A DNA stretch of 42,260 nt from the IMG/VR virus record IMGVR_UViG_3300044611_001249, positions 1-42,260 of that record; one strand, 5' to 3'. Both the position numbers and the translations under genes were made by a program. The stretch is from a virus (lineage: Duplodnaviria > Caudoviricetes). The notes beneath the pieces are model-generated. The model did no database searches, was not told the DNA's origin, and saw only the letters and a program-made list of their open reading frames with translations. Shown piece by piece: positions 9,040 through 36,306 of the stretch (the first letter of the stretch is position 1; each line of letters begins with the position of its first letter).

Positions 9040-12000
9040 TGGGCGCGCTAGTTCTCCCAGTTCAACGTGACGTCGACGTAGAGACTCAGCAAGATCTGTT
9101 CTCTTCGATGAAGCCTACGCCCTGGCAGGCTATGGGTTCGTTCTCCGATTCTATGCGTGAGAACATCACCGGTGGTTTACTCAAACTCAAGGACCTGAAT
9201 TCGGCTGATCGAGTACCTTTTGGTAGTCAGCGGGATTTCGTGGATTCGGAGACTCTGAACGCCAAGTATGGCCTTGAGGGCTTGGACTTCTCGAAACATG
9301 GTCCGCGTACAGACGCGCAAGCCAAGTACATGTACAACCGCAAGCTGGCCGAGATTGAGCGTAAGGATCGCCGTGAGCGGGCCACTGGTTGGGCCACGGC
9401 TGCTGGCGTTGGTCAGGACTTAGTTGCTGGTATGCTCGACCCTGTGGGCATGGGTGTGGGTTTCGCTATTGCTCCGGCCAAGTTCGTTCCAGGCCTGAAG
9501 GCACTTGTACCTGTTGCCGAGAATACTGCAGGCAAATTTCTTCCTCGGGCAGCTTCAGCCTTCGCAACCACCGGCTTCAACACAACTGTTGGTATGGCCG
9601 CGCTTGAACCCGCTAACTATTACGCTCACCAGCAAGAGGGTGCTGACTACACCATGGCGGACTCGCTTGTCAACATCGCTGTAGGTGGCGTGGCCGGCGG
9701 TCTGTTGCATTCAGGGGCTTTGGGGGCGTACAGGATTGGTCAGGTTACGAACAAGGGCTTGCACTGGGTGGGTGACCAGGTTCCAGAGGGCTGGTTTGGC
9801 AAGATCGCACCTGAGACTCACGAAAGAGCCTTTGATACGCGTCTCAAGCAAATCCTTGCTGGCGATGACACGGGTATCGAACCGATTATTCGCTCAGACC
9901 GAAACGTTCAGGCGGAGTCCAGGGTTGCCGCGTCTATTGACGAACAACTGAAGCGGACTCAGCCGACAAGTGAGCCTGATGTCAATGTTTTGGCCGCCGA
10001 ACTGAAGGCCATTGCTCGCGAGATGGACCTTGAGGAGATTACGCTCAAGAGTTTGCCTGGACGCTCCAGCGAGCGATTCGATCAATTGAAGATGGATTTC
10101 GACGGTCGCATCGAGCAACTGGTCAAGGCCAAGCAGGTTAAACTCAAGACTACCTCAGATGGAGTAGAGCTTGACGGGCACGCTATTAAGTACGACTTAG
10201 AGGATATCACGCTCAACGGTGTGACTTTCCGCAAGGTTAGATCAGTTCCAGAGCACCTCACGGATTTCGATCAGGCCGTGGGCTACTTCAAGAATATGAG
10301 TGCTGAGGGCAATCCGTTCGAGCTATTCAGCGTCAATGACCATGTCATGGTAGGCGGCGTTGAGAAGCCAGCAGCATACGGAACAGTTATTATCGAGAAG
10401 GATGGCCGCATATGGGTCACTAAGCCGAAGGATGGTTTTGGCGGTTATCTGACGTCTTTTTCGAAAGGCCGACTTGATGGCGCGGAAGATGCCTATGCAA
10501 CAGCTGTCCGTGAGACTTTCGAGGAAACAGGCCTCGTAGTCAAGGGCGTCGATTATCTGGGCGGCTTTGACCGTAGCACCTCGTTTACACACTACATGGT
10601 TGCTGAACGTGTGGATGGCTCGCCGCAAGCCTTTGGTCACGAGACTGAGGGTATGGAGCTGCTGTCTGTAAAGGAGCTGTATAAGCGTCTGACTTCTGAA
10701 GGTAATGCCAATGATGCGGCTGTCCTGGAAAAGGCTATCGCTTGGATCAACAAAAATCAGAAGTCCGACAGCAATATCTTCGTTCCGCACATTGCCAAGC
10801 TTTCTGAAGAGGATGCTGCAGCTCTGCTGACTCGCACCAAGAACCCGTATGCCGTGTCGACTGACATGACGGTGCCGGTGATTCATGCCGATCAGCTTGG
10901 GGATCAGATTTCCGGGCCTCTTGGTTCCAATGACGGTGGCATTTACCGCCTGTCTGATGGCACTCAGGTTTACGCAAAGTTCCCGTCCAACCCTGACCAG
11001 ATCAGCACTGAGATTGCCGCTGGTTTGCTTTACAGCAAAGCCGGTCAGTTTGGTCAGGTTGGAACACCTCAACTTCGAGTGATCGTTCGTGATGGAAAAC
11101 CGGTAGGAGTAGCTTCTGAGTGGATCGAGGGACTGAAGCCCATTAGTCCGGATGATCTGGCCGCGCGACTGTCTGATCCACGCCTATCTCCAGCCGAAGA
11201 AGAGCACATCCGCCAGATTGGTGGTTCGTGGATCTTTGATGCGTGGATAAACAACCACGACGTTTACGGAACAGGTCCCACTTGGAATATTTTCTCAGAC
11301 GGCCACGGTAACTACATCAAGCTTGATTTTGGCGGCTCGATGGATTTCCGGGCGCAAGGCGGAACTAAGAATTTCGATTCCAACGTTTCTGAGATTGGCA
11401 CGTTCCCTGAGCATGCTGGTAAAAACCTGATTGCTGCGACAGTTGATTCTCAGGCTGTTGGCGCTGAGATGGTTCTGCGCATGTCGCCTGAAGACATCAA
11501 GGGGGCGTTGACATCGGCTGGGTTTGAGGGGGACAAGCTGAACCGGTTGGTGAGTAAGCTCATCGCGCGCCAGGATTCGATTCGCAAGCAGTTCCCCGAT
11601 ATTGCCTATCACATCGACGGCATTTACAACAACGTAACACATGCAGGTTCTCTGAAACTTGCAGACCTGTGGCTTGAGCAAATGGCTAGTAAGCTTACAC
11701 ACAAGCTCACTAACGCTATGAAGGCCACGATCGATGCGTATAAGGGTTCCTGGGCCTACGACATAAATAAACAACTCTGGGACGGTGGGCCTGTGCAAGG
11801 TAAAGACCTCTCGTCGCTCAGGGAGCTGGACGAGGCTATGGCTCTGTCTGAAGGACTTTCCACCGAGACAGTGATGTGGCGCTGGCAAGACTCTTACAGC
11901 ATGGGTCTTACGCCACTGAACGTTAAGTCCACGCTAGAAAAGACTGCCTACCTGTACAAGAGCTTCATGTCAGCCTCAACACATACAGATACCTCAATGG

Positions 12001-12590
12001 CCGGCCGTGACGTCCTTTGGAGACTTGAGGTAGAACCTGGGGTCAAGGGCATTCCGACAAAGGTGCTTAAGACGATACACGGAGATGAGCCGTTCGCTAG
12101 CGAGTATGAGTTCATCCTGCCGCGCGGTCAACTGCTTGTTATTGACGGCGTGGACAAGGTTGTGTCGTGGATTCATGGGTCCCCGCAAGAGCATTGGCAG
12201 GTTCGTGCTCGCGTTGTTAATCCAGCCAATCTGTCTAAGGATGCGGATTCGCTGATCCAGACACTGCATGCGTCTATGGCTGACAAGAAGGTCGAACCCA
12301 CAGACATGTTTGGTGGTGATGTTGAGGCTCATATCAACAAGCTGGTGGACGACCTGTATCAGGCGCGCAAACCGCCTGAGGTCCCCACTCTGACCGAGTC
12401 CGTCGATGTGAAGACGCCGGCGATGCTTGCATTTGAGAAAGAGATCGCTGACATGCAGGCTGCGATCAAGGATCTAGATCTGGATGATCTGGCTCTTAAG
12501 GAGCTTGAGATGGCCGACGCCAAGATCAAGGACACGGACAGCTTCGTTGACGGATTAAAGCAGGCTTGGGCCTGCATGAAGGGGCTATAA
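9039..12590 (+). CDS. Polyvalent ejection protein: Nudix hydrolase + HipA/PI3-PI4-kinase-like + ADP-ribosyltransferase (R-S-E) domains
   Basis: Nudix box GRLDGAEDAYATAVRETFEETGL; kinase motifs GSNDGG, YAK, TE, DAWINNHD..N and KLDFG; ART motifs MWR, FMSAST and SEYEFILPRG. Confidence 0.8.
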   Translation: MGALVLPVQRDVDVETQQDLFSSMKPTPWQAMGSFSDSMRENITGGLLKLKDLNSADRVPFGSQRDFVDSETLNAKYGLEGLDFSKHGPRTDAQAKYMYNRKLAEIERKDRRERATGWATAAGVGQDLVAGMLDPVGMGVGFAIAPAKFVPGLKALVPVAENTAGKFLPRAASAFATTGFNTTVGMAALEPANYYAHQQEGADYTMADSLVNIAVGGVAGGLLHSGALGAYRIGQVTNKGLHWVGDQVPEGWFGKIAPETHERAFDTRLKQILAGDDTGIEPIIRSDRNVQAESRVAASIDEQLKRTQPTSEPDVNVLAAELKAIAREMDLEEITLKSLPGRSSERFDQLKMDFDGRIEQLVKAKQVKLKTTSDGVELDGHAIKYDLEDITLNGVTFRKVRSVPEHLTDFDQAVGYFKNMSAEGNPFELFSVNDHVMVGGVEKPAAYGTVIIEKDGRIWVTKPKDGFGGYLTSFSKGRLDGAEDAYATAVRETFEETGLVVKGVDYLGGFDRSTSFTHYMVAERVDGSPQAFGHETEGMELLSVKELYKRLTSEGNANDAAVLEKAIAWINKNQKSDSNIFVPHIAKLSEEDAAALLTRTKNPYAVSTDMTVPVIHADQLGDQISGPLGSNDGGIYRLSDGTQVYAKFPSNPDQISTEIAAGLLYSKAGQFGQVGTPQLRVIVRDGKPVGVASEWIEGLKPISPDDLAARLSDPRLSPAEEEHIRQIGGSWIFDAWINNHDVYGTGPTWNIFSDGHGNYIKLDFGGSMDFRAQGGTKNFDSNVSEIGTFPEHAGKNLIAATVDSQAVGAEMVLRMSPEDIKGALTSAGFEGDKLNRLVSKLIARQDSIRKQFPDIAYHIDGIYNNVTHAGSLKLADLWLEQMASKLTHKLTNAMKATIDAYKGSWAYDINKQLWDGGPVQGKDLSSLRELDEAMALSEGLSTETVMWRWQDSYSMGLTPLNVKSTLEKTAYLYKSFMSASTHTDTSMAGRDVLWRLEVEPGVKGIPTKVLKTIHGDEPFASEYEFILPRGQLLVIDGVDKVVSWIHGSPQEHWQVRARVVNPANLSKDADSLIQTLHASMADKKVEPTDMFGGDVEAHINKLVDDLYQARKPPEVPTLTESVDVKTPAMLAFEKEIADMQAAIKDLDLDDLALKELEMADAKIKDTDSFVDGLKQAWACMKGL

Positions 12591-22668: not shown

Positions 22669-24093
22669 TCACCAAAGATCAAAGGCATTTTGACTTTGGG
22701 CATCCATTATATACAAGTTCTCCTTGGCTCGTGTAGCAGCCACGTAGAACACGCGGATCTCGTCATCGGGATCTTGTTGAAATTGCTCGAACGATTTGTA
22801 GCTCATATCGGACAGCACTACTACGTTTTCACACTCACCACCTTTGGAACCGTGTATCGTCGACAACCGGATACGTGGCTCCTTCGTCAGACTCTCTCCA
22901 CGACGGAGAGCAGCCACGAAGTAGTCCCGAACATCTTGACCGAGGCGTTTGAAGGCCTCATGCCAGATCGGATATTCTTTCGCTGGATCGAACCCAGGCA
23001 CAAACTTGCGAATGGCTGTAATATCGTCAGCAGTCAACGTCTCACCTTTGCGCCAGTGCTCGAACAACTTGATGGCCTTGACCGTGTCATGTTGCAAAGG
23101 GGACTTCTTGCTGGCATATGCGTAGCCTGATTCTTCGCAGATGGCTTCAAAGGGATTCAGGAGATATGCGTTGCGGGCCAGTATCAGCCAGTCACCCGAA
23201 GACAGATCAATATCGTCAGGTCCCGATACAAAGTGTACTGCTCCCTCACGTTCAGCTGGCTTAAACGACTTAGGCCGGCGAGCACCGCAGTGGCGAATAA
23301 CCCGTTCAGCTTGGGCATGCACAGCCTTTGGAAGGCGATAGCTCTGCTGCAGTTGCTGGACAGAACCTGGGCAATTGATGAACGAGTCAGGGTCTGCCCC
23401 CGCCCACCGGAAGATCGCTTGGTCGTCATCACCTGCAATATAGACCACTTCAGAATTGGCGATCAGTCGGTTAACCACTGCCCATTGCAACTTGCTGAGA
23501 TCTTGCGCCTCGTCAACGAAGAGCACCTTGAACTTTGGCAACTCGCGTTCTGTCAACAAGATGCTGAGCATATCATTGAAGTCGATCAGCGAGTACGAGG
23601 TCTTGTAGGTATCGACAGCCTTACAAAGGCGCTCAAACTCTTCGAATGAGTAATCTTCCTGCGACAGGCGATACTGTTCCTTGCAGTCAATCATCCGCAC
23701 GCGCATGAGACCTTCATTAAACAACATACGGTCACCAATGAGCGCACCAGACAGTTGCATACCGTCGTCTAGAACGACGTAGCCTGAATACTCTAGGCCC
23801 AACGCTTCGCAGATCTCAGAGTATTGATCGCGCTTAATCAAGTCACCTGTCGACAGGCCGAGTCGCTTGAACGCCAGCGAGTGCAGTGTGCGGAACCAGG
23901 GTAACTGTTCCTTCTTGTAGTCAAAGCGGGTCATGGCCCGAGTGATGGCCTCAGTAGCAGCCTTGACTGTGAATGAGATGTATCCTATCTGATCAGGCTG
24001 GATGCCCTTCTTCAGAAAGAATTCCAGATAGTCCAGCAACTTGGTCGTCTTGCCTGTTCCAGGCGGACCAACTACAACGGTAACATTGCTCAA
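22669..24093 (-). CDS. UvrD/Rep-family (SF1) helicase
   Basis: GPPGTGKT, VDEAQD, GDDDQAIF, QSYR, TIHGSKGGE and YVAATRAK motifs. Confidence 0.92.
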   Translation of the reverse strand: MSNVTVVVGPPGTGKTTKLLDYLEFFLKKGIQPDQIGYISFTVKAATEAITRAMTRFDYKKEQLPWFRTLHSLAFKRLGLSTGDLIKRDQYSEICEALGLEYSGYVVLDDGMQLSGALIGDRMLFNEGLMRVRMIDCKEQYRLSQEDYSFEEFERLCKAVDTYKTSYSLIDFNDMLSILLTERELPKFKVLFVDEAQDLSKLQWAVVNRLIANSEVVYIAGDDDQAIFRWAGADPDSFINCPGSVQQLQQSYRLPKAVHAQAERVIRHCGARRPKSFKPAEREGAVHFVSGPDDIDLSSGDWLILARNAYLLNPFEAICEESGYAYASKKSPLQHDTVKAIKLFEHWRKGETLTADDITAIRKFVPGFDPAKEYPIWHEAFKRLGQDVRDYFVAALRRGESLTKEPRIRLSTIHGSKGGECENVVVLSDMSYKSFEQFQQDPDDEIRVFYVAATRAKENLYIMDAQSQNAFDLW

Positions 24094-25601
24094 AAGACCT
24101 CTCCTTTGCTAAGCGTTCTCGGTATGGCCAGTTCAGGATTCAGAGCAAACTCTGGTATAGACCAGTAGTTTACGCCCTTACCCTTCAGATTCGAAAAATG
24201 GTGCTGCGCACCAAGATCATTCTTCAAATATGAAGTAATCTCGTGCAGTCCCATCTTGAACTTATGCCGCTCCAAGAACGAAGTCAAACCAGAAACCGTA
24301 AAGAAGTGCTGTCCTCCATCAGTGAAAGGCTTGCCCATGCGAATCTCTTCCTTAGCCATGGCCTGCGCTCTCTGAGTACAATACTTCTCTATAAGCTCAT
24401 TCAATTGCCCGCGTGGTGTCGCATCCTGCGGAGCCTCAATAACAGTGATGCTTTCCAAAAGGGACTGCACCATCGCGGTCCATGCCTTCTGATTCATCTG
24501 AGCAGGCATGCTGTTGAGCGAGTCCATACACCGCCTTTGGAATCGAATCTGCTGTTGCAGATCTTCCGTAGTCAGTTCCAAACGGCCACCACCCTCGATG
24601 TCAGCAAACCAAATGGGCGGTGACGACGCGTACTTGGTAAGGCCCGTCATAACAGGCATACCAGAGTGGTCACCGACGCCAAACTTGCGACCTCGACAAA
24701 CAGCAGAATTACAGTGGTGCGTTAGAGGAACTTGTGTGCAGGTGTACTGATAATCCCGCTTCTTCAGCGACTTGATGATCTCCTTAATCTCGCTGCTTCC
24801 CAAAGGTGGATCCATGTACTTGATGTTGTACTGTTCCACTGTTGGCTCCCAACTATCTGGGAAAGCCTTCTTTGCGTATACGCCGAGATTATATAGCCCG
24901 TTGTTCCTAGTACCTTCAGGAAAGGATTGGGTGATCAGTAGCTGTAAGCACGGAGGACCATCACTGATTGCAGCCTTTACTTCTGCTTGGTACGCTTCGA
25001 GTTCGTCCGGCCCGACACGCTTGAGGTTTGCCGTTTCGATGAACTCACCAAGATCCATAGGTGTACCATCTGGTCGGATTCCATGGCGTCCGCCCGACAT
25101 ACCACCAAAATATGGCATGTTGATCCAGGAGCCAATGTCACCACGCTCCGGTAGTACCTCAGTCTGTTTGGGAAATACTTCTGATCGGCCGTATCCCAAT
25201 GCTGCCGCCATGTCTCGAAGTTTTCTCTGAACCAGTCCTGCAGCGGTAGGTTCAGTAAGGAAGACCCAGGCGTGCAGACCTCCAGATTTTGTTGTTGTGG
25301 GAACCAACGGCATTCTAAGGCGGTCAATTCTGGTAGCAAGCTCTGCATGATTGATGCTGTAGTCGTCAATGTCGATGGCTCCGAAGAGCACGGTTGAATC
25401 GTCTTTGATGGGAACGATTCCAATTGCTTGCCTTCCCAATACGTGTTGGTTCCAGACATCGCGTGTTACCTCCTTACGAACGATAGATACTTTGCCGGTT
25501 TTCTTCTGATCCCTTGATCGGGATCCGTTTATTTCGAACGTACCATAAGACCTTTCGAGGCCGTCGAATAGCCTCATAAGGTCGTCTACGAACTGGTCCA
25601 T
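24090..25601 (-). CDS. Archaeo-eukaryotic-type primase with PriCT-like domain
   Basis: AIDIDD, KSGGLHAW and EVFPKQ motifs; GPPCL...EGTRNNGLY with a Cys cluster. Confidence 0.75.
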   Translation of the reverse strand: MDQFVDDLMRLFDGLERSYGTFEINGSRSRDQKKTGKVSIVRKEVTRDVWNQHVLGRQAIGIVPIKDDSTVLFGAIDIDDYSINHAELATRIDRLRMPLVPTTTKSGGLHAWVFLTEPTAAGLVQRKLRDMAAALGYGRSEVFPKQTEVLPERGDIGSWINMPYFGGMSGGRHGIRPDGTPMDLGEFIETANLKRVGPDELEAYQAEVKAAISDGPPCLQLLITQSFPEGTRNNGLYNLGVYAKKAFPDSWEPTVEQYNIKYMDPPLGSSEIKEIIKSLKKRDYQYTCTQVPLTHHCNSAVCRGRKFGVGDHSGMPVMTGLTKYASSPPIWFADIEGGGRLELTTEDLQQQIRFQRRCMDSLNSMPAQMNQKAWTAMVQSLLESITVIEAPQDATPRGQLNELIEKYCTQRAQAMAKEEIRMGKPFTDGGQHFFTVSGLTSFLERHKFKMGLHEITSYLKNDLGAQHHFSNLKGKGVNYWSIPEFALNPELAIPRTLSKGEVF

Positions 25602-27863: not shown

Positions 27864-28193
27864 CTAGTGCTTGTACAAGGACGGCTCGGTCTGGTACTCA
27901 TCCAGCATGACAGACCAGACCTTGTAGTAGGCGTCATGTAACCGCGGATCGCTGACCGAATCCTTGAAGTTGGTATACTCCATGTTACGAATAACTTGCA
28001 ACAGGACTAGCATAACCTCGCCGCGCGAAATGATTACGCGATAGGGGTAATCCCGGTTCGGGGTATGGACGATCTGAGAGTCTTCGACTAGCGCATGAAG
28101 ATCCTCGCGCTTACGAGCACGCACCAGTAGCATGTTGGGCATCTCTTTGACGGCCACGATAGACAGAAACGCATTATTTAGGCAAATCCACAT
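27864..28193 (-). CDS. Conserved hypothetical protein (MW....AFLSIV...LLVRAR...DYPYR...NFK pattern)
   Basis: 109 aa, AAGGAGGT RBS. Confidence 0.7.
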   Translation of the reverse strand: MWICLNNAFLSIVAVKEMPNMLLVRARKREDLHALVEDSQIVHTPNRDYPYRVIISRGEVMLVLLQVIRNMEYTNFKDSVSDPRLHDAYYKVWSVMLDEYQTEPSLYKH

Positions 28194-28497
28194 TTGGCAC
28201 CTCCTTAAATGATTTAGCGAACAACATCATCTCAACATACAGATCGAGAATGGATTCAGCGTACTTCACGAGCGTCATCCCAAAGGGTGTGAAATAGGCA
28301 CCTTTGGAACGACGATAATAGATCGCTTGCTGGAAGTAGTTCTCCACCAGCTGCGACCGGTACACAATCATGGACTGAGTTACTCCCAGACTTGCTGCAG
28401 CCTGGTGCGTACCGCCTGTCTTGTACAAAGCAAGGACCACGCGCAAATCCATGATATCAAGCTCGTCGAGCTTGTGCGTCTTTACACCTCTTGGCAT
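28174..28497 (-). CDS. LysR-type HTH protein lacking an effector domain
   Basis: DLRVVLALYKTGG..QAAASLGVTQS...LVE.....Y.R...G..FTPFG matches the LysR DNA-binding domain plus linker helix. Confidence 0.75.
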   Translation of the reverse strand: MPRGVKTHKLDELDIMDLRVVLALYKTGGTHQAAASLGVTQSMIVYRSQLVENYFQQAIYYRRSKGAYFTPFGMTLVKYAESILDLYVEMMLFAKSFKEVPNVDLPK

Positions 28498-30278
28498 AGT
28501 TCAGTTTCTCCCCAGCTAGGACCGAGTTCCGCGTCAACCCGAAGAGGAACTTCAAGCTTTACGCAGTTCACCAGTATTTCAGAAATCTCTTTCGCATGGG
28601 CCACGTCTCGAACAGGACAGTCCACCTCGTCGTGAACCGTGTTGTAGATAACATGGCCCGCATCATGCAGGTTAACCAAGGCCTGCTTAATCATGTCCGC
28701 AGACGAGCCTTGGATAATTGCGTTCAAGGCTTTGTGGGCGAACTCTCCCCCAGGAAAATGCCTACGTCTGCCCATAATAGTTTTAACCCAGCCGCGCCGT
28801 TTAGCGAGACGCATTGCCTCATTACCAAGAAGTTTAACGTAGGGGACAGCCTCATGATATGCCGTGAGAACCGGCTGGGACTGGTCAACTGACATACCCA
28901 AGTTGGCCGCCAGTTTGTGTACTCCCATGCCGTATGCCATTCCAAGATTAAGCGTTTTAGCAACCTTTCTTCCAATGGGCGTACTGGTAATTTCCTCTGC
29001 CATATCAGCAACCATCTGATGATAGTCACTCTTAGGATCAGCAAGATAACGTGCCCGTGCTTCAGCTGCCCCTCTGTATCCGCGTAAGTAGCCATAATGT
29101 ACTGTCACCCTCGGTTCTTGTTGAGAATAATCGAACACTCCAAACTGCATTCCATCATCAGGAACAAATATCCCTCGGATGATAGGCGCGAGGATCGGAT
29201 TTCGCGCAGGTACCTGCTGCATATTTGGCTTACTTGACGCCAATCGTCCTGATCGAGTTCCGCCATCATCTTGCCTAGTTTGCTTGAACAATGGGTGTAG
29301 TCTTCCCTTATGAGAGAATCCAACGATTTTGGTTTTAATGAAAACATTAGCGCTCCGATCCAGTTTTCTGACGGTTGTTATATCTTGTGCCAGTTGTGTG
29401 TTCTGAGATTCAAGCCACTCTGCAGTAAAGCTCGGATTACCCTTTTCTGTACGTATAAAGGGCAACCCGCGTGATTCAAATGCACTGGCCAAACTCTTGC
29501 CAGACCACACATCAGTTGGAAAGCCAACCAGCTGGTCGATTCGTTTCTGTGCGTCACGTTGTTCTTGCCCAAGACGTACCATAGCCTGCTCAGCCTTATC
29601 GTACGATATTGGTATTCCTCGCAGTCGTACAGCGAGCAGTACGTCCACAAGCCGCGACTCCAGATCGAACACATGACGAAGTTCCTCTTTCGTAAGAATA
29701 GGCAGTTGTTTGAGGAAGACTTGTAAGGCCCCTTCAGCATCAAACTCTGCATACGGTCCAACATATCGAGCAGGCAGTCGCCAAAGGTTCTTCTTGACTT
29801 GCTTGTCGGTTGTCCAACCTTTCGCCGCTGCTGCACGTCGTAACTCGGCCTCATCCTTACCGCAACCCAGGTACTTAATGCAGATAGTATCCAACGATAG
29901 GCTCTCGCTGTTTTCATCAATCAATGCCTCCGCAATTTGAATATCATATTTTGGCCCGTTAACAGTAATGCCTTCGGCCCAAAGCCACTCAAGGTCGTAA
30001 CCTATGTTCGCGCCAACCTTCGGCTCATTGCCAGCGAGTTCGCGCTTCAAATACCGAATAACAACATCCTTTGGTAGATTATCCCCGCCCTCGTGCGCAA
30101 AGGGGTAATACGCCTTGAACCCAGAAGTAGCTATAGAGACGCCGACTACGTAGCCGTCGCCTCGAATAGCTCCAGGCCCCATCACCTCAAGGTTCGGATC
30201 ATTGGTCTCGCAGTCGATAGCGATGTAGTCCGCACCCTTCAGTGACGGGTATCTGCCGGATGGCCTCCAATCAGACAC
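28482..30278 (-). CDS. polA: DNA polymerase, family A, with 3'-5' exonuclease
   Basis: Exo motifs IDCET, NIGYDL and YAEFDA; Pol motifs DYSQQEPR, RKVAKTLNLGMAYG and VHDE; start placed at GTG 30278. Confidence 0.93.
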   Translation of the reverse strand: MSDWRPSGRYPSLKGADYIAIDCETNDPNLEVMGPGAIRGDGYVVGVSIATSGFKAYYPFAHEGGDNLPKDVVIRYLKRELAGNEPKVGANIGYDLEWLWAEGITVNGPKYDIQIAEALIDENSESLSLDTICIKYLGCGKDEAELRRAAAAKGWTTDKQVKKNLWRLPARYVGPYAEFDAEGALQVFLKQLPILTKEELRHVFDLESRLVDVLLAVRLRGIPISYDKAEQAMVRLGQEQRDAQKRIDQLVGFPTDVWSGKSLASAFESRGLPFIRTEKGNPSFTAEWLESQNTQLAQDITTVRKLDRSANVFIKTKIVGFSHKGRLHPLFKQTRQDDGGTRSGRLASSKPNMQQVPARNPILAPIIRGIFVPDDGMQFGVFDYSQQEPRVTVHYGYLRGYRGAAEARARYLADPKSDYHQMVADMAEEITSTPIGRKVAKTLNLGMAYGMGVHKLAANLGMSVDQSQPVLTAYHEAVPYVKLLGNEAMRLAKRRGWVKTIMGRRRHFPGGEFAHKALNAIIQGSSADMIKQALVNLHDAGHVIYNTVHDEVDCPVRDVAHAKEISEILVNCVKLEVPLRVDAELGPSWGETELCQEV

Positions 30279-30747
30279 AGGCGTCGAATCCCGGGTTGAT
30301 CTCGATTGTACGACCAGGTGTGCGTAGCCACAGATCAATGGCGGCTTGATCGTACAGCGAGCTGGCGACGATACGCTTGCAAGAGGTGTTCATCAGCAAC
30401 TTCATGCAATGAATGCATGGACTGGCCGTCACATACGCCGTATCGATCTGGTATACATCGCGGCACTGAAGGAGCGCATTTTGTTCCGCGTGAATTGCTT
30501 CGCATGCATGAAGATCCTGGCCGCTCTTAGCGCAAGCCCCTGCACAAGCATTCGGAAAGCCCACGTCGCTAAACATATCCTCCTTGTTACAGTGAGGTAG
30601 TCCCGACGCAACGCCATTGTAGCCAGTAGACAGCACGTGTTTACGGCTATCAACAAGCACGCAGCCAACAGCACGCCGCAGGCAAGTAGCACGAGTAGAA
30701 ACAAGTCTTGCCATTGCGCTAAAGTAATGATCATGTGTGGGCCTCAT
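30271..30747 (-). CDS. dCMP deaminase
   Basis: TCLRRAVG, TGYNG, HAEQNA and SPCIHC zinc-deaminase motifs. Confidence 0.9.
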   Translation of the reverse strand: MRPTHDHYFSAMARLVSTRATCLRRAVGCVLVDSRKHVLSTGYNGVASGLPHCNKEDMFSDVGFPNACAGACAKSGQDLHACEAIHAEQNALLQCRDVYQIDTAYVTASPCIHCMKLLMNTSCKRIVASSLYDQAAIDLWLRTPGRTIEINPGFDACV

Positions 30748-31535
30748 TGTTGTGTCTCCTCAAGCCAACCTTCAAAAGGCACTTTGCGTTCAGCCGCCAC
30801 CCAAAGGTGGTCGACCAGGTGCTCAGGCGATTCGAACTCTCGCGGGTTGAAATCCTTCACCTTGATTGTGCTGGTGATGCCATCAAGCAGATTCGTCGCG
30901 GCCTGCCATTCAGTCTCGTAGAGATGCTGGCTTGCGGCGTAGAAGTGCAGGTCGCCGAGTGCGATGTTCTCAAACGCCGGCTTTGCTCGACGCAGGATCA
31001 ACAGCAGATACGCGCTGATCATGGAGAAGTTGAACCAGTCGTAGGGTACACCCAGCCAGGCATCAGACGAGCGCATGTTAACGAAGCAGTGCAGGAATCC
31101 ATCACGGATCATCCACTGCATGGCCACAGTACACGGGACGTCACGACTAGGCATGGGAGACTCTCGCCACACAGTAAGCACGGACTGCCGCGAGTACTCG
31201 TCCTTCAATAGTGACTGCACGATATACGGCAGTTGCATAAGCACCTTTGGCCCGTACGCGCCGAAGAACTGGTAGCCATCGTCAGAGAAGTCACTGATGG
31301 CCTTGGAGAACGGAGAGATGGTCGAGACCTTGTTGTCGCCTGACAGAATCCACGCAGCCTCAGCAGCCATGAACCGATAGCCCAAACGCCGCTCACGAAT
31401 AGTGACAATCGGGTTGTCCATTGGTACTAGTGTCTTCCAACCCAACAACTCGCGAGTACTCTTACCCCTAGGGGCTACAACTGGAGCATCTAGCAGGTCG
31501 GCCAGAAGACTGAGCCAAACAACGTTTGCTTTCAT
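30744..31535 (-). CDS. Thymidylate-synthase-family dNMP modifier, cytosine-type (dCMP hydroxymethylase/methylase-like)
   Basis: GAYG, SRQ, catalytic PC and MRSSDAWLGVPYD (Asp at the dUMP/dCMP specificity position), then HLY. Confidence 0.8.
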   Translation of the reverse strand: MKANVVWLSLLADLLDAPVVAPRGKSTRELLGWKTLVPMDNPIVTIRERRLGYRFMAAEAAWILSGDNKVSTISPFSKAISDFSDDGYQFFGAYGPKVLMQLPYIVQSLLKDEYSRQSVLTVWRESPMPSRDVPCTVAMQWMIRDGFLHCFVNMRSSDAWLGVPYDWFNFSMISAYLLLILRRAKPAFENIALGDLHFYAASQHLYETEWQAATNLLDGITSTIKVKDFNPREFESPEHLVDHLWVAAERKVPFEGWLEETQQ

Positions 31536-32566
31536 ATAGTTCTCCCATATGCGCGAACTCGAAGGAGATCGCAACCAAGATCGCACTCAAGAGTACGACC
31601 ACTGTTCCGTACCAGATCATATAGCGGATCTGTGACGGTCCTAGCGTCATTGAGGTACGTCATCGTTAGCACCTTATGCGCTTTACCCGGGATCATCCGC
31701 ATCTTATCCATACCCCCGTTGTCGTCCATCCACTTGTAGAAGATATCAGACCCGAGAACATACGGCTTGATTTCAAACGCAGGTACGATCCTGTTCAACT
31801 CAGCTGGGGACTCGGTATAGCAGGTCATCATGATCTCATGCTCTGGAATACCCAGCTTCTCCAGAATCTGAGTGAAGTGCAGGCTGGCCCCTCCATAGTC
31901 AACAAAGGGATACCAGTCATCACGTTCAGCATGATTCTTACCGCCGACGAAGATGTACTTCGCAGGACTGATGTGACCGGTAATGTTATAGCACTCCGGT
32001 TCCAAGATCCAGGGTAGCTGCTCCTCTTGCCACTCCTGTTGATCCTGGATAAGCACAGCCGCAAAATCCTTTGTAAAGTCCAGATCCTTCTTTGCAAGCT
32101 GCACACAGTAGCGCCGAACATGTGGCCAGTCTTTCACCTTATCCCACAGCTTGTGGTATTCGACGCAGACCGGCGAGATATCCGAATACATCTCCTCACG
32201 CGTCTTCTTCAGGTCCTCATACTCATTCAAGTGGTCACGCAAATTCTCGGGAAGACAAACCACCTCAAGTGCGGCATGCTTGAGAATCAATCGCTCAAAG
32301 AAGCGATAGGCCAGTGGCCAGGTGCTACCACCGCGATATGCTGCGGCATAGCAGATCTCGCTCATCCAAAGGCGGTCAATTACAACAAATCGCGTTTTGG
32401 ACAGCTTGATAGCGCGGTGGAGCAAGGCCAACTGGTACGTGAACATCTTGTCGGTGAACCGATACGTGGCATGCATATACACGCCATCGGTCTGGCGAAC
32501 AATCTCCTTTGCAAGGGTTGTTTTGCCAGCGCCGTCAGGGCCGTCAAGAATGATCAGTCCACGCAT
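31532..32566 (-). CDS. dNMP kinase (P-loop) fused to a UDG-like domain
   Basis: DGPDGAGKTT and IDR.WMSE..Y in the N-terminal half; G....AKYIFVG....PFV..GG....ILEKLGI in the C-terminal half. Confidence 0.65.
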   Translation of the reverse strand: MRGLIILDGPDGAGKTTLAKEIVRQTDGVYMHATYRFTDKMFTYQLALLHRAIKLSKTRFVVIDRLWMSEICYAAAYRGGSTWPLAYRFFERLILKHAALEVVCLPENLRDHLNEYEDLKKTREEMYSDISPVCVEYHKLWDKVKDWPHVRRYCVQLAKKDLDFTKDFAAVLIQDQQEWQEEQLPWILEPECYNITGHISPAKYIFVGGKNHAERDDWYPFVDYGGASLHFTQILEKLGIPEHEIMMTCYTESPAELNRIVPAFEIKPYVLGSDIFYKWMDDNGGMDKMRMIPGKAHKVLTMTYLNDARTVTDPLYDLVRNSGRTLECDLGCDLLRVRAYGRTI

Positions 32567-33057
32567 CACACAAGATCCTTCAGAGTAGGTGGAACCCAGC
32601 CCGTTGGCTTGACCACGTCAAACGACGTGCCACGCTTGGAGTCACCAGAAGAAGCCGCCCGCGTCTTGGCCATATTGGCCTGCTGTACGCGACGCCACGC
32701 TTCATGGAAGCGCTGTCCAAAGGGACTGTTTGTGTGGAACCCGCAGAAGCGAACCGTGCCCATAAGAACATAGAGCAGGTCCACCAGACCGTCGAGCGTC
32801 TCTTCAAGACGAACGGAGCTGGGAGCATTCTCGCGAATGTCTTCGTCGATCTTGACGAACTTCATGTCCTTCTCTTCGTCGACTTCAAGCACGAAGTCGT
32901 TGGCCGCAGCGATCTCAGCCAGTTCTTCCAGCATGAAGTTCAGACGAAACGCCAGCATCTCGTCACTGGGAACAGCTGGTACAGCAGGCTCAAGCGCGTC
33001 CAAACCGAACTTGGAGTGGAAGGAACCTACGTCAGCGACAAAACGATCTTCAACCAT
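32566..33057 (-). CDS. MazG-like (PRA-PH family) dNTP pyrophosphohydrolase
   Basis: ATG 33057 with AGGAG RBS; EELAE, DGLVDLLYV, ANMAK and KPTGW..P motifs. Confidence 0.85.
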   Translation of the reverse strand: MVEDRFVADVGSFHSKFGLDALEPAVPAVPSDEMLAFRLNFMLEELAEIAAANDFVLEVDEEKDMKFVKIDEDIRENAPSSVRLEETLDGLVDLLYVLMGTVRFCGFHTNSPFGQRFHEAWRRVQQANMAKTRAASSGDSKRGTSFDVVKPTGWVPPTLKDLV

Positions 33058-33901
33058 TGAAATTCTCCTTGATGAAAGTAGTCCATGCTTCGGACGAGGA
33101 ATTGCATGGATCCATGATGCGATCCACTGGAACAGCACTGGGTTCTTCGATCTGGGCCTTACAGACTCGCCACAGACAATTCCTGCTCAGCTCAGGGAAG
33201 AGCGGGGCAAAAATAGTTGAGAGGTAGTTCGAGTCATAATATTCCCGTAACCTATCGAAGAGAGGCGTGAGCCCTTCGTCATCCAATTTGTGTTGATAAT
33301 CTCTCATGGATGCGAAGGTTCCATAGACCTTCTGAACACGCAGACCTGCATTCTCGATGAGGAACTGCAAGCCACGGAAACTCATCTCGTTGACGTGGTT
33401 AGCCGCAGCGCCCGTAGCCTGGTCGTAGACCGGGGTGGACAGAAACGCGACACCTTCGTCTTCCAGGAGCGAAGCGATACGCTTCAGCATGTCAAACGAG
33501 TGTGACGGCTCCACGTGTTCGAGGACCTCGAAGCAGGTAATGACGCGGAACGTAGAACCCTTGTCATCCCACATGCAGACGTCCCTTTGAGGAACCAGTT
33601 CGTACGGGAAGCGGCCAAGATTGAACGGCGGTTCGAGCTTGTTGATATCGACGCCCGTATACGAGCCGGTCTTGGGGATCAGGCGGCTGGAGTACAGGAG
33701 ACGTAACAAAGGGAGATCACGGCCACAGCCGATGTCCAGAATGTCAGCGGTCTCATACAGTCGTCCTTTGGTCAGGAACCGTGCAACGTGGGACCAGCGC
33801 AGGCAGTGCGCAATGTAGTCGCGATGAATGAAACCACGCCGTTCAGCGAGGTCGATAGACAGATGGGTGTTGTCCATAGCTTTGCCACGAGCATTCGCCA
33901 T
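33050..33901 (-). CDS. Class I SAM-dependent methyltransferase (small-molecule type)
   Basis: ILDIGCG, YTGVDI, CFEVLEHV and LSTP motifs; no DPPY/NPPY or PC motif of DNA methyltransferases. Confidence 0.85.
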   Translation of the reverse strand: MANARGKAMDNTHLSIDLAERRGFIHRDYIAHCLRWSHVARFLTKGRLYETADILDIGCGRDLPLLRLLYSSRLIPKTGSYTGVDINKLEPPFNLGRFPYELVPQRDVCMWDDKGSTFRVITCFEVLEHVEPSHSFDMLKRIASLLEDEGVAFLSTPVYDQATGAAANHVNEMSFRGLQFLIENAGLRVQKVYGTFASMRDYQHKLDDEGLTPLFDRLREYYDSNYLSTIFAPLFPELSRNCLWRVCKAQIEEPSAVPVDRIMDPCNSSSEAWTTFIKENFNG

Positions 33902-33944
33902 ATGTTCCTCCATGTAAAGATGTTTGTCAATCAGAGTATTTTAA

Positions 33945-34003
33945 AGGCCCGATCGGGCCTGAGGGGTCCCCACTGCTAGAGAGGGAGGTAACTAGCAGTG
34001 GGG
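33945..34003. other. Intergenic palindrome plus stem-loop
   Basis: AGGCCCGATCGGGCCT palindrome (33945-33960); 12-bp perfect stem CCCCACTGCTAG/CTAGCAGTGGGG (33968-34003) with a 12-nt loop. Confidence 0.7.
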
Positions 34004-34025
34004 GTGTTGCGCCGCGGCCGGGAGG

Positions 34026-34364
34026 TCAGGCGGCAGCAGCGGAACTCTGAGCCAGAACGCCGGCGTTGACCAGGTCCTTCTGGTAATAACCGATGATACG
34101 CTCAACGGGCTGCTTCGTCTTGAAGGCTTCGTCGGCGAGCAGGGCTTTGCCGAGGTCACCCTTGCTGATGCCGTTGGCACCGGCGTTCTGGACGTGCTTG
34201 ATGATCAGCATCGCCTGCGGGGCGAACTTCTGACCTTCAGCCGGCTCCTTGACGAAGGAGTAGGTGATGTTGGACACGCGCGGCGCCTTCGGTGCCTTCG
34301 GGGCAGCTTCGCCAGCGTTTTCCGGGGTGGTGTTTTCAGTTGCAGCAGTTTTAGCCTTGGCCAT
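34026..34364 (-). CDS. Small basic winged-helix-like protein (paralog 1)
   Basis: MAKAK start; FKTKQPVERIIGYYQKDLVNAGVL; own promoter and AAGGAG RBS. Confidence 0.7.
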   Translation of the reverse strand: MAKAKTAATENTTPENAGEAAPKAPKAPRVSNITYSFVKEPAEGQKFAPQAMLIIKHVQNAGANGISKGDLGKALLADEAFKTKQPVERIIGYYQKDLVNAGVLAQSSAAAA

Positions 34365-34407
34365 GATGATTCTCCTTGTGGATGGGTACTACGTTGAATG
34401 AGATTCT

Positions 34408-34436
34408 ATTATACATCAGCGGATGGTTTTAGTACA
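34408..34436 (-). promoter_or_regulatory. Sigma70-type promoter
   Basis: Minus strand TGTACT, 17-bp spacer, TATAAT, then AGAATC (shared with the 37558 promoter). Confidence 0.7.
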
Positions 34437-34466
34437 CCCGCTAATGTATCTTCCCGCAAACTATCG

Positions 34467-35462
34467 CTAAGCAACCAGGAGGATGTCGCGATCGTTAGCA
34501 GCAGCGACAGCCAGTTCCAAAGCTTGTTCTTTCAGTTTAGCCTTGGTACCGAACCACGCAGCCATGAGGGCGGTGTCACGCTCACGACCGGATTGGTGAT
34601 CAACCCAGTACGTCAACGAGTTCAGCGCGCCCCACCAGGTACCTTTGGACGATTCCATCTGTCCGCCGGGCTGGCTGTTGAGGACTGCGGCCACCTGGTA
34701 TGCGTTGCGATTCAGATCAGCGATGGTCAGCTCGTCTTCCTTGCCGAGTTGCTTGAAGTCGGCCGGTGCGAACAACTTCATCAAGAACCGATAGTATGCT
34801 TGTGCATCGCACTTGGTGGTGGACATGATCTCAGCCTGCCGATGGAAGATCCCCAGCTTATCACGGGCGATTCCAAGGGCTTCCTCGGCGGTCTTCATCA
34901 TCTCGGTACCGAACTCATAACGATGCGGCATACGGAACGATTCACCACCAGAGTTCATGGCCATTGTCAGCGTGTTCTGGCACACCACGCGAATCGGGGT
35001 GAACTTGACCACCAGCGACTTGCCCCAGATGTGCGGAGACGAGAGCAGCAGATAACCGTCCACCTTGTCCTCCTTGAACAGGGAGAACGTATCACTGATC
35101 TTGGCGAGAGCCCAGACCTGTTTGCCGCCGTCCAGTGCTCCAGCAGTCTCTAACTGCATATGGCCAGCCTCGGTCCAACGACGGAAGAACTCAAGCGCTT
35201 GCTTGTTCTGCGTGGGCACATACTCCCGGCCGCAGATCCCCAGGTTCTTGTTGTCCGAGTCCCGGACCAACGCATAATAGCCGTCGACTGGGCAGGACTT
35301 GCCTTCATCCGTAGCGTAGGACATGGGTTTCTTCTGAACCTTCCAGTCGAGGCCTGATGCTACCAGCATCGTATCAACGTCGACGGAGGGATCAACCTGT
35401 TGCCCCAGACCATGCCAGGGGACTTGATTGGCGTAAGCCATTGTTTCGATGTTTGCGGGCAT
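34467..35462 (-). CDS. DUF932 / phage-plasmid family protein
   Basis: PWHGLG, ETAGAL.GG..VW.LA, TPIRVVCQNTL and GTWWGALN motifs. Confidence 0.85.
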   Translation of the reverse strand: MPANIETMAYANQVPWHGLGQQVDPSVDVDTMLVASGLDWKVQKKPMSYATDEGKSCPVDGYYALVRDSDNKNLGICGREYVPTQNKQALEFFRRWTEAGHMQLETAGALDGGKQVWALAKISDTFSLFKEDKVDGYLLLSSPHIWGKSLVVKFTPIRVVCQNTLTMAMNSGGESFRMPHRYEFGTEMMKTAEEALGIARDKLGIFHRQAEIMSTTKCDAQAYYRFLMKLFAPADFKQLGKEDELTIADLNRNAYQVAAVLNSQPGGQMESSKGTWWGALNSLTYWVDHQSGRERDTALMAAWFGTKAKLKEQALELAVAAANDRDILLVA

Positions 35463-35568: not shown

Positions 35569-36246
35569 TCATTTGTCATGGTGGAACCGCAGGAAGCCAC
35601 CACTGATCAGCTTGCCACGATAGTACTGGAAGATGCGCCACGGATCTTGGCGAGTGTACAGCTGCTCGCGCCGAAGCGTGATGTAACCTTGCAGTTCTTC
35701 CTCTGTAAAGATGTGGCTGCGGCCTTCTGGCCGTTCTGGCAGCTTCGTCAGATCGTGCAGAAGATCAATCAACGCACACGCTTGCGGTGGCAGTCGGTTG
35801 TAGACAGCGGCGTGACCTTCGCATTCTGGGTCAAACACAAAGCGATAGCACACCTTCTTCTTATAGCGCTTGGGCCGCGGACCTCGCACCTTGCGTGCAG
35901 CCCGCTCGTTTGCAGCCATCTCCTCGTATTTGGCGAGGGGATCGTACGCCTGCATCTGCAGCTTCGCCCACAGTTCAGCCGTGGATTTGCATGCGAACTG
36001 TCGACCGAGTTCCATCGTACGCTTCGCTCCGAGCTTGAAGCCCAGATCATCTGGCGTCAGATAGATGCGATGGTGTTCGCGGGGTGGAACCACTTGCCTA
36101 GCCAGCTCCAGTGTGTCGAACCGCAGCCACTTATCGTGGACATAAGCAACCACGTGAGTGTGCACTGCGATATCTGCTTGGTTCGCAGAGGTTGGTGGTG
36201 GCCGTTCAGCCAGCACTTCTTTAGCGAACTTTCCGATATTGACCAT
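35569..36246 (-). CDS. Protein with a C-terminal winged-helix-like domain (paralog 3)
   Basis: ATG 36246 with GGAGGT RBS; ends LPPQA...TRQDPWRIFQYYRGKLISGGFL. Confidence 0.65.
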   Translation of the reverse strand: MVNIGKFAKEVLAERPPPTSANQADIAVHTHVVAYVHDKWLRFDTLELARQVVPPREHHRIYLTPDDLGFKLGAKRTMELGRQFACKSTAELWAKLQMQAYDPLAKYEEMAANERAARKVRGPRPKRYKKKVCYRFVFDPECEGHAAVYNRLPPQACALIDLLHDLTKLPERPEGRSHIFTEEELQGYITLRREQLYTRQDPWRIFQYYRGKLISGGFLRFHHDK

Positions 36247-36277
36247 GTTGACCTCCGTTTCGAATGGTACAAGGACC

Positions 36278-36306
36278 ATTATACCTCAGATAGAGGCAAA
36301 TGTATA
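36278..36306 (-). promoter_or_regulatory. Sigma70-type promoter
   Basis: Minus strand TATACA, 17-bp spacer, TATAAT; shares TACATTTGCC with the 37558 promoter. Confidence 0.65.

Follow-up and report, generated by a model that had tools for sequence, protein, structure and literature searches.

Transfer of a group to the hydroxyl of 5-hydroxymethylcytosine (5hmC) is already known as glucosylation and as carbamoylation. In phage T4, gp56 is a dCTPase and cd is a dCMP deaminase; with the dCMP hydroxymethylase gp42, the dNMP kinase gp1 and the alpha- and beta-glucosyltransferases they make up the glucosyl-hydroxymethylcytosine pathway. The T4 hydroxymethylase carries Asp at positions 143 and 177 (E. 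coli ThyA numbering; PMC13326640). In the 5-carbamoyloxymethylcytosine pathway of uncultured phages (Yang et al. 2021, PMC8670742), a thymidylate synthase (TS) homologue, a PRA-PH/MazG protein and a dCMP deaminase co-occur, and a carbamoyltransferase (CT) that requires the 5-hydroxymethyl group and ignores 5hmdUTP places a non-sugar group on the 5-hydroxymethyl hydroxyl, possibly before replication. The Xp12-type 5-methylcytosine (5mC) pathway has an Asp177-type TS homologue beside dCMP deaminase, PRA-PH and PolA (bioRxiv 2024.12.05.627091). The window analysed here, the whole 42,260-nucleotide stretch of virus record IMGVR_UViG_3300044611_001249 (Caudoviricetes), carries a minus-strand cassette of this kind headed by an S-adenosylmethionine (SAM) methyltransferase (MT). 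As predicted from its sequence, and with somewhat better than even confidence, the phage replaces cytosine with 5hmC, which the MT would then O-methylate to 5-methoxymethylcytosine. This product, proposed in the first-pass annotation, is the best-supported reading of the locus on the basis of the Hen1-type residues of the MT, its linkage to the TS gene and the mutual exclusivity of MT and CT.

As in some carbamoylation loci, a MazG-kinase-TS-deaminase series stands behind a group-transfer gene in the cassette; the window has a SAM methyltransferase in that slot, and its predicted product is a methyl ether, not a carbamate. With T4 the window shares a scheme built on a dCTPase, a dCMP hydroxymethylase, a dNMP kinase and a dCMP deaminase, as well as the D143/D177 signature, but it differs in having no glucosyltransferase, a MazG-type pyrophosphatase, a PolA podovirus setting and a kinase fused to a uracil-DNA glycosylase (UDG) fold, and its TS homologue is nearer by sequence to MilA than to T4 gp42. 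The Xp12-type pathway resembles the window in its gene neighbourhood, whereas position 143 must be hydrophobic for a methyl product to form, and the window enzyme has Asp there.

The TS homologue (263 aa; 30744..31535, minus strand) has the TS fold (PF00303) with catalytic C135 and E59, and its further key residues are R116, D132, T136, S156, D158 and D166. The codon at 31040-31038, within RSSDAWLGVPYD, reads GAC, confirming the first-pass observation that Asp (D166) replaces the Asn of thymidylate synthases (E. coli ThyA Asn177) at the position of cytosine specificity; this Asp is invariant in 38 of 38 aligned TS homologues, where it is numbered D167. A second GAC codon (31140..31142, minus strand) encodes D132, in the motif SRDVPC, the equivalent of ThyA Leu143 at the position that separates hydroxymethyl from methyl products, and D158 corresponds to position 169. 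Among characterized enzymes, Asp177 denotes dCMP as substrate, Asp or Glu at 143 denotes hydroxymethyl over methyl transfer and Asn169 denotes hydroxylases (PMC13326640); the position-143 rule is a correlation among tested enzymes, and the window enzyme is known from sequence only. The best PDB match was the CMP hydroxymethylase MilA (E 6e-22). R116 and S156 correspond to the Arg126'/Ser167 pair that marks deoxyribose-preferring enzymes (PMC5175136), where MilA has Lys/Ala. Asp at all three positions (hereafter D/D/D) disfavours 5mC and 5-hydroxycytosine: a dCMP methylase of the Xp12 type needs a bulky hydrophobic residue at 143, and a 5-hydroxy-dCMP synthase of the RB69 gp48 type needs D169N, while D158 is retained here. 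Judged by these residues, the TS homologue very probably makes 5hm-dCMP, which is the strongest step of the proposed pathway.

Two cultured phages carry the same five genes in the same order with the same TS signature, Stenotrophomonas phage AXL3 (gp27-31) and Pseudoxanthomonas phage PW916; both are siphoviruses, AXL3 with a ThyX, whereas the window is of podovirus type. The authors of both genomes took the cluster for thymidylate synthesis, and neither paper identified the base (AXL3, PMC7504290; PW916, PMC9414467). AXL3 DNA withstood all but 2 of 37 restriction enzymes; those two recognise AT-only sites, AATT and TTAA sites being cut (PMC7504290). Having ThyX, AXL3 does not depend on its TS homologue for dTMP. 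Among the 35 of its 65 proteins that were scanned, no glycosyltransferase was recognised. The genome holds 13 KpnI sites, which are uncut, and 21 resistant sites for PdmI, an isoschizomer of XmnI. KpnI fully cuts both 5mC DNA (Xp12) and 5-hydroxymethyluracil DNA (Flodman et al., PMC7653180), and therefore neither plain 5mC nor a thymine change alone explains the digests. XmnI cuts 5hmC DNA partially, does not cut glucosylated T4 DNA and also fails on 5mC DNA (PMC7653180); the resistance to PdmI hints at more than 5hmC in AXL3, a weak hint because enzymes and conditions differ and because of that failure on 5mC. Synthesis of 5-methyl-dCMP or dTMP by the TS homologue, as in an Xp12-type or ordinary thymidylate pathway with an incidental MT, would accord with the AXL3 authors' reading (PMC7504290) and with the 5 of 7 deaminase-linked TS enzymes tested by Yang et al. 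that made 5mdCMP (bioRxiv 2024.12.05.627091). It is nevertheless extremely improbable in view of D143 and D177, which every readable MT-linked TS homologue carries (104/104), the 13 uncut KpnI sites against complete KpnI cutting of Xp12, and the separate ThyX of AXL3. Where the first-pass annotation named 5hmC or 5mC as the replacement for cytosine, the former is supported by the D/D/D signature, while the latter is disfavoured by Asp143 and the KpnI resistance of AXL3.

To relate MT and TS across phages, loci were fetched from the best 80 of 316 MT and 381 TS stretches and consequently lean to near relatives. The MT was found in 179 fetched loci with 116 distinct MTs, and a TS gene lay within the fetched flank of 105 of these (104 D/D/D, one truncated), so that the absence of linkage contemplated in the first-pass annotation was not observed. 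Ten of the remaining 11 have less than 2.3 kb downstream, and the other (L109) has its TS at the opposite end of the same contig. Linkage held at 70% clustering (47/49), and none of 75 distant bacterial MT loci taken as a control had a TS gene. The MT family comprises 347 protein clusters (50% identity, E up to 1e-30); within the annotated phage collection it occurs in four other genomes, those of AXL3, PW916 and two phages from spring water. The cassette order is complete in all four, the PW916 kinase being unannotated yet found by search. Partners of other TS types carry the same residues: those of T4-gp42 type (L124, L130, L142, L152; L012) have D143/D177, as do those of KDYPC type (L121, L144, L153) and that of L137. 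In the MT tree, the MTs accompanying these three types take up four distinct positions, which argues for a link set by chemistry rather than by membership of a single TS clade. All trees were quick trees, the TS tree with long-branch warnings, and neither a donor nor a sequence of events is read from them.

Viewed from the TS side, 84 of 113 distinct genes are accompanied by an MT, 2 by a CT, 10 have too little flank and 17 have neither. Because of these 17, the MT is regarded as an add-on to 5hmC synthesis and not part of it. Twelve of them belong to pelagiphage-like genomes of T7 type that have just the kinase and the TS. Pelagibacter phages HTVC119P and HTVC200P (L005, L006), together with L172-L199, have the kinase and a D/D/D TS with no MT, MazG or deaminase nearby, and as judged by these genes the two cultured SAR11 phages are candidates for plain or partial 5hmC DNA.

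The exchange of MT and CT offers a second line of evidence. A scan with a single CT sequence found only itself, and a two-sequence alignment yielded 37 loci, including two re-fetches (L048, L075). A TS gene was present in 32 of the 37, with D/D/D in 30 of 31 readable cases. No MT was found in the 37 CT loci and no CT in the 179 MT loci; the window likewise has no CT gene by Pfam. Ten of the 37 read CT-MazG-kinase-TS-deaminase, which is the window order with CT in the place of the MT, and in the TS tree two CT-linked TS nest among MT-linked ones within the window clade. The CT modifies the 5-hydroxymethyl hydroxyl (PMC8670742), and such exclusivity would be expected if both enzymes compete for a single hydroxyl, but also if each phage settles on one decoration. 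Among these loci, L330 has a CT-linked TS with atypical residues around position 177 (GLIGAD). A further cassette, in L081, has no MT, and a protein with an ADP-ribosyltransferase domain (L081:124-1998) stands directly ahead of its MazG.

The MT itself (283 aa; 33050..33901, minus strand; PF13489, E 2.5e-15) is modelled with a pLDDT of 94 as a compact class I small-molecule methyltransferase. Fold searches brought up numerous class I methyltransferases that differ by only about 2 Z units, with no DNA methyltransferase among the matches listed, and they do not single out a substrate class. A single-sequence PDB search gave one weak match, and the link to Hen1 and UbiG needed profiles, in which these two lead after or beside one protein-lysine methyltransferase without ExxEH. 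With Hen1 the MT shares the class I fold (3htx; Z 15.3, rmsd 2.9, 185 aligned), and with Hen1/UbiG the Arg, ExxEH, STP and downstream His-x-x-Glu align. In profile alignment R35, E125, E128 and H129 pair with HEN1 R701, E796, E799 and H800 (3htx, file offset 8), and N168-H169-x-x-E172 pairs with the D-H-x-x-E of bacterial Hen1 (3jwi), H169 being taken by alignment as the counterpart of the HEN1 His860 ligand. The Glu, Glu, His and His ligands of the Hen1 metal and the catalytic Arg would thereby all have equivalents in the MT. These residues are conserved among MT homologues (R35, 287/289; E125, 301/302; E128, 302/302; H129, 302/302; H169, 301/301), and in HEN1 the four ligand residues hold a metal that binds substrate hydroxyls (PMC10781085, PMC1397878).

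In contrast to Hen1 and UbiG, the window MT sits in a dNTP-synthesis operon. Hen1 proteins carry an FxPP motif ahead of the Arg, and bacterial Hen1 is partnered with Pnkp/RNA ligase. No FxPP precedes the MT Arg, HRDYIAH standing at that place, and the family has an N-terminal motif of its own, HRDYxxHxxRW; neither the window (Pfam, PHROGs) nor the 25 most recurrent unlabelled neighbour families include Pnkp/RNA ligase. On account of its own motif and the missing RNA-repair partner, the MT would not be classed by sequence as a Hen1 by membership. The first-pass annotation had stated that the MT lacks the catalytic motifs of DNA methyltransferases, in agreement with a motif check and Pfam: there is no NPPY-type motif ((D/N/S)PP(Y/F/W)), no ENV motif, a single PC dipeptide near the C-terminus and no PF00145-type match. 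The protein is acidic (pI 5.8; family median 6.1), its stop is overlapped by the MazG start, and one MT::MazG fusion protein occurs among the homologues. Acidity, coupling and fusion to MazG and the small-molecule fold favour a nucleotide substrate; the MT probably acts on the mononucleotide or triphosphate, clearly the more probable level compared with DNA, and cytosine modification is probably completed before replication. The nucleotide-level replacement envisaged at first pass accordingly forms part of the best-supported reading, by the acidic pI and the MazG coupling and fusion.

Several observations weigh against O-methylation of 5hmC by this enzyme. UbiG chelates a vicinal diol, as does Hen1, whereas 5hmC offers one hydroxyl. 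In Hen1 the diol bound by the metal consists of the 2'- and 3'-hydroxyls (PMC10781085). Furthermore, the TS clade can do without the MT, as 17 of 113 TS lack it, and plain 5hmC accounts for most of the AXL3 digest pattern. These points, together with the place of Hen1 among the best sequence matches, would fit DNA with plain 5hmC and an MT acting on a ribose diol, either in Hen1-like 2'-O-methylation of RNA 3' ends or in disposal of ribo-hmCMP. Such a role is unlikely, however, given the missing RNA ligase/Pnkp in the window and the recurrent neighbour families, the MT/CT exclusivity and slot swap, and TS residues that favour deoxyribose. Fold searches do not separate O- from N-methyltransferases, which score equally, and linkage to a 5hmC synthase is compatible with either site, so that methylation at N4 to N4-methyl-5-hydroxymethylcytosine, of the same mass as the ether, has to be considered. 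It appears quite unlikely, since a Glu2-His2 metal site activates a hydroxyl in Hen1, the MT lacks an NPPY-type amino-methyltransferase motif, and N4 methylation need not exclude CT, yet MT and CT never co-occur.

A sugar would be another conceivable substrate. In the T4-like locus L154 (2984-4749), UDP-glucose dehydrogenase and NAD-dependent epimerase genes come after TS and MT, and this adjacency of an MT to NDP-sugar genes likewise counts against methylation of 5hmC itself. A phage or host glycosyltransferase that escaped recognition might attach a sugar to 5hmC, and methylation of that sugar would also suit the diol-chelating type of site and the four long homologues fused to a domain of about 340 aa (PHROG 14998). 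We consider it very unlikely, as no glycosyltransferase was recognised in the window, among the 35 AXL3 proteins scanned or among recurrent MT neighbours, and a nearby 236-aa reading frame (35569-36279) gave no glycosyltransferase-like match and no match in the ESM Atlas. The first-pass claim that the genome has no recognisable glycosyltransferase was borne out for 49 open reading frames by Pfam and PHROGs and for 20 by NCBIfam, a very remote one being possible. The PHROG 14998 domain occupies the MT slot in L080:2851-4497 and is fused to MT in P0137, P0153, P0158 and P0159; it is possibly another 5hmC-decorating enzyme.

Two further points count against the predicted O-methylation. The AXL3 MT is only 33% identical to that of the window, and 35 of 40 long MT homologues are fused to a C5-DNA-methylase-like domain, a fusion that indicates DNA-level action in that subclade. 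The domain is divergent, with YIFAGGF replacing the usual SAM motif and PC intact; it occurs in or near the cassette (L078:1177-3705, L079:4615-5766, L080:1715-2785), is carried by five MT loci and is found among the long homologues P0121-P0160.

The cassette as a whole reads MT, MazG, dNMP kinase::UDG-fold, TS homologue, dCMP deaminase and PolA on the minus strand, with 4-8 nt overlaps at each cassette junction and a GGAG-type ribosome site at most of them. The gene order and overlaps given at first pass are thereby substantiated, and the span 30271..33901 assigned to them covers the five cassette genes, while PolA lies outside it. A contig from a second study spans 30064-34914 with 19 substitutions and no gaps, which argues against an assembly artefact. 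The MazG/PRA-PH-type nucleotide pyrophosphohydrolase (163 aa; 32566..33057, minus strand) matches PF01503 (E 2.3e-5) and PHROG 671 (E 4e-17) and, by analogy with T4 gp56, would act as dCTPase. In the following gene (31532..32569, minus strand) a dNMP kinase (residues 1-185; PHROG 761) with YorR/TMP-kinase matches (Z 14-15) is fused to a UDG-superfamily fold (178-342). The UDG-like part noted at first pass is real as a fold: the model matches family-4 UDG 1l9g (Z 11.1, rmsd 3.7, 144 aligned), 6ail (Z 11.0) and 1mtl (Z 10.2), and 5 of 49 kinase-family members match Pfam UDG (PF03167), while an ESM Atlas search with the tail gave only a UDG match below threshold. Kinase matches of at least 250 aa number 131 of 177, consistent with the fusion in most relatives. 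A further match to this domain (31532-32030, minus strand) is the UDG domain that a family-A polymerase from a phage carries (9qhs, Z 10.4). The family A DNA polymerase with 3'-5' exonuclease (PF00476, PF01612) has its longest reading frame at 28482..30338 (minus strand) and overlaps the deaminase stop; its start is uncertain, GTG at 30278 being an alternative.

The dCMP deaminase (158 aa; 30271..30747, minus strand; PF00383, E 7e-19; HAE and PCxxC motifs) would supply dUMP for host thymidylate synthesis. It could alternatively divert part of the 5hm-dCMP to 5hm-dUMP, from which the MT would make 5-methoxymethyluracil while 5hmC replaces cytosine, a scheme that gains from the window having no ThyA or ThyX of its own among its reading frames (Pfam) and from the 7 of 90 TS-linked phage deaminases that deaminated 5hmdC in vivo (bioRxiv 2024.12.05.627091). 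The trait of 5mC-selective deamination (mSCD) is polyphyletic, and the available part of that report gives no sequence rule for it. Formation of the uracil ether is highly improbable, as AXL3 possesses a ThyX and is cleaved at AATT and TTAA sites, the same deaminase stands in CT cassettes whose CT ignores 5hmdUTP, and several MT loci have no deaminase within the fetched flank.

The pathway proposed for 5-methoxymethylcytosine, with every activity predicted from the gene order, coupling, residues, linkage, exclusivity and folds above, would begin with conversion of dCTP to dCMP by MazG. The TS homologue, from its three diagnostic residues, is predicted to turn dCMP into 5hm-dCMP, and the MT, with SAM and a divalent metal held by Glu2-His2, would methylate the CH2OH group. 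The kinase and host NDP kinase would then give the triphosphate for incorporation by PolA. With dCTP drained, the deaminase would restore the dUMP supply, and the UDG-fold domain may deal with modified bases that have become deaminated. With no need for a sugar donor, the resulting methyl ether would protect the DNA from type II restriction.

The surrounding genome (42 kb) is of podovirus type, and its circular permutation falls at the portal gene. Virion genes, which are BPP-1/T7-like, occupy the plus strand, and the minus strand carries the replication genes. At least half of the sampled words of the region occur in five public runs, all lake-water metagenomes and one possibly the source. 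GAATTC (1024), AAGCTT (2117) and GGATCC (2611) stand where the first-pass annotation placed them, and all 64 six-base palindromes occur (599 observed, 644 expected), weak evidence that is consistent with no strong avoidance of restriction sites. A search for promoters and terminators at 33800-34500 found none. Contigs from RNA libraries overlap the kinase, MazG and deaminase genes, not the MT; since contigs cannot show expression, they were not used. A LysR-type HTH gene (28174-28497, minus strand) directly follows PolA, and an AEP-TOTE-type primase gene lies at 24090-25601 (minus strand). On the plus strand, 9039-12590 encodes an internal virion protein of 1183 aa with NUDIX (aa 444-554, E 7e-14) and ADP-ribosyltransferase (aa 876-1042, E 9e-12) domains and a match to the Alt-like PHROG 802, likely an injected host-takeover enzyme combining a writer with a possible ADP-ribose/NAD hydrolase.

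The literature searched, with most subscription papers outside it, contained nothing relevant on a methoxymethyl DNA base or an MT-TS pairing; the accessible parts of Pyle et al., the T-dioxygenase paper and the Tevenvirinae survey describe neither, and a search for bacimethrin BcmC was empty. In the accessible text on MetaGPA, the generic Pfam family of the MT is only nominally enriched (27 selected versus 1436 unselected contigs, corrected p = 1), and the screen would for that reason miss the MT. The analysis yields a predicted natural DNA base with a named enzyme and catalytic residues and bears on the restriction resistance of AXL3, without explanation since 2020. More tentatively, at slightly less than even confidence, a widespread phage family makes 5-methoxymethyl-dCTP through a Hen1-type site, and many podo-, sipho- and T4-like phages including AXL3 and PW916 have all their cytosine replaced by this base. 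Type II enzymes could be blocked by so small an ether, which might at the same time be poorly attacked by nucleases recognising 5hmC or glucosyl-5hmC. If true, this would be a third, sugar-free way of capping 5hmC, by an enzyme alkylating 5hmC directly, and such SAM-to-5hmC alkyl transfer would serve the labelling and sequencing of 5hmC.

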